Positions 35,018-35,292 of a DNA stretch of 64,000 nt are shown here, one piece after another. The notes beneath the pieces are model-generated. The model had not been told where the DNA came from. It ran no database searches and saw nothing but the letters and a program-made list of their open reading frames with translations. A program made the translations under genes and the position numbers. Positions within the stretch are counted from its first letter, which is position 1. Every line of letters starts with the position of its first letter. The DNA comes from Escherichia coli (GTDB lineage Bacteria > Pseudomonadota > Gammaproteobacteria > Enterobacterales > Enterobacteriaceae): assembly GCF_013122565.1 (NCBI RefSeq), contig NZ_CP053258.1; one strand, 5' to 3'.

Positions 35018-35220
35018 ACTTGCCGGATGCGGCGCGAACGCCTTATCCGGTCTACCGATCCGGCACCAATGTAGGCCTGATAAGACGCGCCAGCGTCGCA
35101 TCAGGCATCGGGCACCGATTGCCGGATGCGGCGTAAACGCCTTATCCGGCCTACGGTTCGGACTATTTGTAGGCACGATAAGACGCGACAGCGTCGCATC
35201 GGGCATGGTTTGCCAGATAC
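35018..35220. repeat. BIME cluster (multiple REP copies)
   Basis: At least four tandem gccggatgcggcg...cttatccggcctac units between fadA and fre. Confidence 0.85.
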
Positions 35221-35266
35221 GTCATAGATCTAAATGCCACTGAATAACAGTTTAGTTGCCGTTCTT

Positions 35267-35292
35267 CCCGCCTGTCAGGGGCGGGTTTTTTA
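35267..35292 (+). terminator. Intrinsic terminator (fadBA operon end)
   Basis: cccgcctgtcaggggcggg hairpin followed by TTTTTT. Confidence 0.65.

Follow-up and report, generated by a model that had tools for sequence, protein, structure and literature searches.

A tandem BIME-2 array between fadA and fre of Escherichia coli, very probably located in the fadBA 3′UTR upstream of the FadZ sRNA

Organization of the fadA–fre spacer

In the window, by which we mean the whole 64-kb stretch of E. coli DNA analyzed here, fadA, the final gene of the fadBA operon, ends with a TAA stop codon at 35013-35015 and is convergent with fre, whose stop codon lies at 35297-35299. The identities of both genes are backed by the RefSeq annotation of near-identical loci (E. 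coli UTME-7 and K-12), which, together with the open reading frames, supports the originally predicted position of a repeat array between them. The fadA–fre spacer is 281 bp long (35016-35296) and contains four complete REP units in the order Y+ Z2- Y+ Z2-. The features of the locus are as follows.

33852-35015, + strand: fadA, 3-ketoacyl-CoA thiolase (open reading frame list, RefSeq annotation of orthologous loci, and Pfam thiolase domains on an identical protein)
35020-35206: BIME-2 array of two tandem ~98-bp units, each consisting of a Y REP and an inverted Z2 REP (Tandem Repeats Finder, direct repeats and consensus matches)
35022-35055, + strand: REP 1, Y type, with a CTAC end (2 mismatches to the Y consensus; hairpin of -19.6 kcal/mol)
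35071-35106, - strand: REP 2, Z2 type, inverted, with GTAG at its left end on the + strand (0 mismatches to the Z2 consensus; hairpin of -21.9 kcal/mol)
35121-35154, + strand: REP 3, Y type (1 mismatch to the Y consensus; hairpin of -21.3 kcal/mol)
35169-35204, - strand: REP 4, degenerate Z2, inverted (3 mismatches with one position taken as N, 4 against the full Z2 consensus; hairpin of -16.3 kcal/mol)
35210-35223, + strand: fifth Y head, truncated and degenerate (TTGCCAGATACGTC; 77% match to the unit start), a right-hand partial copy of the tandem unit
35251-35293 (approximate), + strand: E. coli orthologue of the FadZ sRNA (STnc790) (probe identity, K-12 coordinate and RNase E motif)
35267-35291, + strand: intrinsic terminator of fadBA/FadZ, with the hairpin at 35267-35285 followed by T6 at 35286-35291 (terminator scan)
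35297-35998, - strand: fre, NAD(P)H-flavin reductase (open reading frame ending at 35297; a 702-nt fre at the same position in orthologous loci)

REP units were located by searches with the Y and Z2 consensus sequences and counted by a sliding Hamming scan; units in the spacer have 0-4 mismatches, and the consensus searches give no match in shuffled controls (dinucleotide shuffles of the window and 20 mononucleotide shuffles). At least four REP units matching the consensus had been predicted, and four complete units plus a truncated one, each oriented by the consensus search, are indeed present where they had been placed. Tandem Repeats Finder reports 1.9 copies of a 98-bp period at 35020-35206 with 84% matches, and a repeat search gives direct repeats spaced by 98-99 bp within the array. 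REPs are imperfect palindromes of 30-40 nt, and their definition includes a GTAG/CTAC foot and a mismatch inside the stem (PMC3333891). Here, CTAC feet lie at 35052-35055 and 35151-35154, GTAG feet lie at 35071-35074 and 35169-35172, and RNA folding places internal loops in all four predicted REP hairpins, whose energies range from -16 to -22 kcal/mol. The fifth Y head, TTGCCAGATACGTC, is recognizable through other E. coli alleles, which have TTGCCGGATGCGAC at this place. At the other end of the array, the stem of REP 1 begins 6 nt past the fadA stop codon, and the first Y occupies spacer positions 7-40 in all 11 E. coli alleles inspected. The RNA of the whole spacer folds to -132.8 kcal/mol (z = -7.5) in the fadBA sense and to -124.3 kcal/mol (z = -5.5) on the opposite strand.

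The array is wholly extragenic, lying between the fadA stop at 35015 and the fre stop at 35297, and no gene is annotated there in orthologous loci. Two open reading frames running across the repeats, 34951-35136 on the + strand and 35012-35206 on the - strand, are unannotated in any orthologous locus and were rejected as spurious. The array was also predicted to be the densest of the window, and it is the largest REP cluster of the 64 kb, the runner-up at 9199-9346 having only two complete and two partial units. This second cluster is a smaller BIME-2 remnant composed of a truncated Y head, an inverted Z2 (9219-9256), a Y (9269-9302) and half a Z unit. Other REPs occur singly or in pairs at 6278-6341, 12692-12770, 21886-21940, 53976-54009 and 62645-62746.

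BIME-1 elements are single-copy combinations of Z1 and Y with a long L linker that often contains an IHF site, whereas BIME-2 elements combine Z2 and Y in tandem with short linkers and a strain-variable copy number (Ton-Hoang et al., PMC3333891). The fadA–fre array is a BIME-2 and not a BIME-1, because its Y and Z2 units alternate in tandem, its inter-REP linkers are 14-15 nt long, and the IHF consensus WATCAANNNNTTR is absent from the spacer (35016-35296) with either 0 or 1 mismatch allowed. The reading of the array as an IHF-binding BIME-1 is therefore rejected, and of the two proteins originally proposed to bind here, IHF drops out, while gyrase is retained by virtue of Topo-seq cleavage sites in the K-12 orthologue.

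The sole Rfam family matching in the spacer is naRNA4 (RF02564), at 35074-35151 on the - strand (93.5 bits against a gathering score of 59.5, full model 1-77). This match covers one Z2-Y pair on the fre-sense strand, antisense to the fadBA transcript, and matches on the + strand reach ~31 bits at most. Because naRNA4 is itself one Z2-Y unit of REP325 (PMC4550694), the Rfam model in effect detects any BIME-2 unit, and it has a second match in the window at 9222-9299 (- strand, 82.3 bits). An anti-hemB match in the spacer, with 17 bits and E = 0.26, was dismissed as noise. Elsewhere in the window, Rfam sRNA matches above the gathering score, all on the - strand, are ES222 (4508-4615), CsrC (11514-11767), Spot 42 (12796-12914) and Erse (42296-42547). 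Additionally, a complete rRNA operon occupies 22002-27094 on the - strand, with 16S, two spacer tRNAs, 23S and 5S, and a StyR-44 match at 25123-25222 adjoins its 23S gene.

FadZ and the 3′ end of the fadBA transcript

Downstream of the array, the + strand intrinsic terminator consists of a 7-bp stem with six G-C pairs, a 5-nt loop and T6, and is invariant in 11 E. coli alleles. A hairpin terminator directly after the array had been predicted and is found; what the prediction missed is that this terminator is, by its sequence, the 3′ end of a known sRNA, FadZ. FadZ is an Hfq-dependent, RNase E-processed sRNA of ~40 nt that derives from the fadBA 3′UTR in Salmonella and E. coli and represses OmpD and OmpC, the 3′UTR being 196 nt long in S. 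Typhimurium (PMC10703908). In K-12, Bar et al. 2021 list it as "FadZ, fadA 3'UTR, 4,027,232 <- unknown", with verification on a northern blot, and name ompC, ompF, dctA, kgtP and sucA among its partners (PMC8175672).

In the window, positions 35246-35291 are identical at 44 of 46 positions to the S. Typhimurium FadZ northern probe (the reverse complement of QGO-1580) and iRIL-seq fragment, and the FadZ region is identical to that of K-12 apart from T6 in place of T7. By correspondence, the K-12 coordinate 4,027,232 places the FadZ 3′ end at about 35293. Its 5′ end probably lies at 35251, judging from an RNase E motif, RN↓WUU, with the cut at 35250/35251 and UUU at 35251-35253. In the RNA fold, the predicted FadZ comprises a 16-nt single-stranded 5′ part, the seed, followed by the terminator hairpin. 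In the precursor RNA (35236-35259), folding of 35226-35291 (-20.7 kcal/mol) predicts base pairing between the FadZ seed UUUAGU and an upstream ACUGAAU, and the presumed RNase E site falls at the 3′ edge of a predicted 4-nt loop. FadZ is not represented by any Rfam family and would go unnoticed in an annotation built on Rfam.

The BIME therefore sits inside the fadBA 3′UTR, between the coding region, closed by the fadA stop codon, and a functional sRNA. A promoter scan finds no promoter-like site on the + strand downstream of the array; on the - strand there is one such site, running from 35278 to 35249, which is no more than chance would give (0.8 expected). Since FadZ is situated 3′ of the array, is processed from the operon transcript and is preceded by no + strand promoter-like site, RNA polymerase would read through the array, which would thus be transcribed as part of the fadBA transcript from which RNase E cuts FadZ.

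The T-tract of FadZ is separated by 5 nt from the fre stop codon. On the - strand, a terminator scan from 35296 to 35016 finds no terminator for fre. A bidirectional terminator was rejected, as the - strand hairpin (-11.8 kcal/mol) is followed by AAGAA and provides no U-tract for fre. Taken together, the spacer very probably carries a BIME-2, built of two ~98-bp Y/inverted-Z2 units and a truncated Y head, within the fadBA 3′UTR, with the FadZ terminator ending the operon and abutting the fre stop codon.

REP number in E. coli and spacer content in Enterobacterales

K-12 MG1655 has six REPs in a 380-bp spacer, one ~99-bp unit more than the four REPs and 281 bp of the window, as the original prediction had allowed in suggesting that the unit number might differ from K-12. 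Specifically, the following alleles are found.

0 REPs, 91-bp spacer: strain 142 (NZ_CP048337.1)
2 REPs, 180-198-bp spacer: O157:H7 and an O25:H4 strain
4 REPs, 271-, 281- or 282-bp spacer: the window, UTME-7, DS566-2 and strain 8178
6 REPs, 380-bp spacer: K-12 and WF5-5-T2

The four-REP alleles have at least three different internal compositions. Allele frequencies were estimated from two systematic samples, taken in even steps down a ranking of 5,426 complete E. coli genomes and amounting to 98 chromosomes. Two, four and six REPs are present in 24, 11 and 4 chromosomes of the first sample, and two, four, six and zero REPs in 36, 17, 5 and 1 chromosomes of the second; combined, two REPs account for ~61%, four for ~29%, six for ~9% and none for ~1%. 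REP number differs even within phylogroups, with six in K-12 and four in ETEC H10407, and two in the O25:H4 strain and four in UTI89. REP number is thus quick to change, and as a mark of strain history, the use originally proposed for it, it is weak where deep history is concerned.

A partial Y head terminates every allele inspected. In the zero-REP allele of strain 142, the first Y head is joined cleanly to the end point of the truncated terminal Y head, which is the junction that would be left if the direct repeats of ~98 bp had slipped or recombined unequally. BIMEs of this kind had also been described as hotspots for IS insertion; none of the 98 sampled chromosomes has an IS insertion at the fadA–fre BIME, the longest span is that of six REPs, and the variation seen is in copy number. 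An identical FadA protein is encoded in CP024273.1, where the spacer has two REPs and the DNA identity is 97.7%, and over the 4.5 kb of 33000-37500 none of the 5,426 complete E. coli genomes exceeds 98.8% identity.

Beyond E. coli, a scan of one genome per species recovers a near-invariant FadZ core in 109 Enterobacterales records, from Escherichia, Salmonella, Citrobacter, Klebsiella, Enterobacter, Kluyvera, Buttiauxella, Serratia and Hafnia as well as Yersinia ruckeri. Near-invariance extends to the T-tract and the hairpin's 3′ half, both of which lie outside the search pattern. In 104 of the 109 loci, the position of the fadA stop codon could be established; there, the distance from this codon to FadZ ranges from 11 to 297 nt and the content of the spacer falls into four classes.

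E. coli-type Y/Z2 REPs: 6 of 104 records, all labelled Escherichia
ERIC-like palindrome of ~127 bp: 27 of 104 records
70 nt or less, repeat-free: 33 of 104 records
More than 70 nt, with neither element: 38 of 104 records

The ERIC-like spacers belong to Salmonella enterica subsp. arizonae, Citrobacter, Klebsiella oxytoca, Raoultella, Trabulsiella, Atlantibacter, Kosakonia, Buttiauxella and Phytobacter. Their elements are identical at 34-35 of 44 positions to the ERIC core given by the ERIC1R/ERIC2 primer sequences, and fold to about -55 kcal/mol. Two unrelated families of palindromic repeats thus occupy one and the same site upstream of FadZ, and the BIME is a genus-specific occupant, confined to Escherichia among these loci, of an otherwise variable spacer beside a strongly conserved sRNA.

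Possible roles of the array and comparison with known systems

In the fadBA transcript, the four RNA hairpins may block 3′-to-5′ exonucleases and thereby protect the fadBA mRNA, above all once FadZ and the terminator it carries have been cut off by RNase E. The hairpins of the opposite strand would do the same for read-through transcripts of fre, a gene that lacks a U-tract terminator. Additionally, the hairpins may attenuate read-through into FadZ, and the first of them, 6 nt past the stop codon, may dampen fadA translation. At the DNA level, the Y units could serve as gyrase cleavage sites between two convergent transcription units. Copy number would shift when the direct repeats of ~98 bp slip or recombine unequally, possibly with the aid of TnpA-REP, a REP-associated transposase that cleaves and recombines BIMEs (PMC3333891). 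REPs have been described as 3′UTR stabilizers and partial Rho-dependent terminators and are linked to higher expression of both members of convergent gene pairs (bioRxiv 10.64898/2026.03.23.713779). In our analysis, protection of the fadBA message together with a 3′ structure for fre transcripts, with the gyrase site as a by-product of the Y units, would be the most economical reading. Counting against any strong function, the array is missing in one E. coli genome and in many genera, its copy number drifts, and terminal REPs show no lengthening effect on mRNA half-lives genome-wide (bioRxiv 10.64898/2026.03.23.713779). The array is dispensable, being absent from one E. coli genome, and 33 of the 104 Enterobacterales species have a repeat-free spacer of 70 nt or less.

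These same observations feed a serious rival, which we consider quite possible though short of probable, namely that the REPs are essentially neutral selfish repeats, spread by the REP-associated transposase into a permissive spacer, where slippage lets their copy number drift and neither fadBA nor FadZ nor fre is affected locally. Occurrence of 0, 2, 4 or 6 REPs, even within a phylogroup, is in line with such drift, as are the decay of REP 4 and of the fifth Y head and the many genera that are repeat-free at this spacer; however, stable hairpins in a transcribed 3′UTR are unlikely to be without effect on decay, and local effects of REPs on termination and stability have been published (bioRxiv 10.64898/2026.03.23.713779). 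The independent arrival of an ERIC-like family in the same spacer of 27 other species would suit a permissive site or a favored one. We hold it unlikely that the array works chiefly as DNA, providing a strong gyrase site or a topological buffer for the positive supercoils that arise between convergent fadBA and fre. BIME-2s are enriched for gyrase cleavage sites independently of transcription, with a preference for their Y units, and the K-12 orthologue, entered in Table DS3 of Sutormin et al. as "BIMEs2 3610200-3610480, 280 bp, fadA>-<fre" and likewise placed between convergent genes, has such sites by Topo-seq (PMC6379681). Yet its signal is modest: 0 sites with ciprofloxacin, 1 with rifampicin plus ciprofloxacin, 0 with microcin and 3 with oxolinic acid, that is, 4 sites in two of four conditions, against 35, 13, 3 and 10 (61 in all) at tldD-yhdP (PMC6379681), and most E. 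coli have a single Y unit here, with none in one genome.

A translational brake, in which ribosomes would stall at the REP 1 hairpin, leading to trans-translation and a lower FadA output, is in our assessment distinctly unlikely as the explanation of the array. The 6-nt distance from stop codon to stem, kept in 11 of 11 E. coli alleles inspected, falls under the rule of Liang et al. 2015, as far as it is relayed in PMC12306157, that REPs within 15 nt of a stop codon (<16 nt) stall ribosomes and down-regulate translation; such a brake would account for the first unit alone and not for the array or its copy number. Least likely of the readings, and very improbable, is that the array yields naRNA4-like nucleoid-associated RNAs that act with HU in bridging cruciform DNA and condensing the chromosome. 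The Rfam match at 35074-35151, scored well above 59.5 bits and corresponding to the Z2-Y pair of REP325, points this way, but the model matches any BIME-2 unit in effect, the strand with the strong match is that of fre and would be transcribed solely if transcription continued past this gene, and a 2026 re-examination found neither nucleoid compaction by REP325/naRNA4 nor long-range REP-REP contacts (bioRxiv 10.64898/2026.03.23.713779).

Returning to message protection, a further and speculative extension, which we regard as improbable, is that REP number (0, 2, 4 or 6) could set both the amount of transcription reaching FadZ and the survival of fadBA mRNA after FadZ cleavage, and that ERIC-like occupancy of the spacer reflects selection for a structured barrier. 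If so, this polymorphism would naturally tune the balance between the enzymes of beta-oxidation and an sRNA by which porins and TCA-cycle transporters are repressed, and the ERIC-like elements of other genera would mark a selected structured barrier upstream of a 3′UTR-derived sRNA.

REP/BIME elements, the fadA–fre BIME-2, its gyrase cleavage, BIME-2 copy number polymorphism and FadZ have all been published, and four REPs here are an ordinary strain polymorphism of a catalogued element. What is added is a corrected class, BIME-2 and hence gyrase rather than IHF; the recognition that FadZ sRNA is the proper annotation of the "terminator"; and an allele series of 0, 2, 4 and 6 REPs at a site where a coding region and a 3′UTR-derived sRNA have a repeat array between them. 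The fadA–fre arrangement is therefore a convenient natural test bed for the debate on whether REPs are stabilizers, attenuators or neither.

Compared with known systems, the array resembles BIME-1 (RIP/RIB, IHF-binding) in pairing a Y REP with an inverted Z-type REP, and differs from it in having Z2 rather than Z1, tandem rather than single-copy units and 14-15-nt linkers without an IHF consensus rather than a long L linker with an IHF site. REP325/naRNA4, the BIME-2 between yjdM and yjdN of K-12, which is a 3′UTR stabilizer and partial Rho-dependent terminator (bioRxiv 10.64898/2026.03.23.713779), shares the tandem Y-Z2 units, the short linkers and the 3′UTR-like position downstream of a gene; however, it comprises six units (12 hairpins) flanked by tandem genes of one operon, whereas the array described here has two units between convergent genes. 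The orthologous fadA–fre BIME-2 of K-12 is near-identical in sequence, with the same locus, flanks, Y/Z2 alternation, truncated terminal Y head and FadZ terminator, and is distinguished by three tandem units instead of two, a few linker and loop substitutions, and T7 instead of T6. With FadZ (STnc790), the locus shares the terminator and the 16 nt preceding it, the position at the end of the fadA 3′UTR and the UUU RNase E motif, although the corresponding spacer of S. enterica subsp. arizonae holds an ERIC-like element where REPs are found here. ERIC/IRU elements, for their part, share with these REPs the place between the fadA stop codon and FadZ and form a long imperfect palindrome, but they belong to an unrelated family, in which a single ~127-bp palindrome stands in place of an array of 35-nt hairpins.
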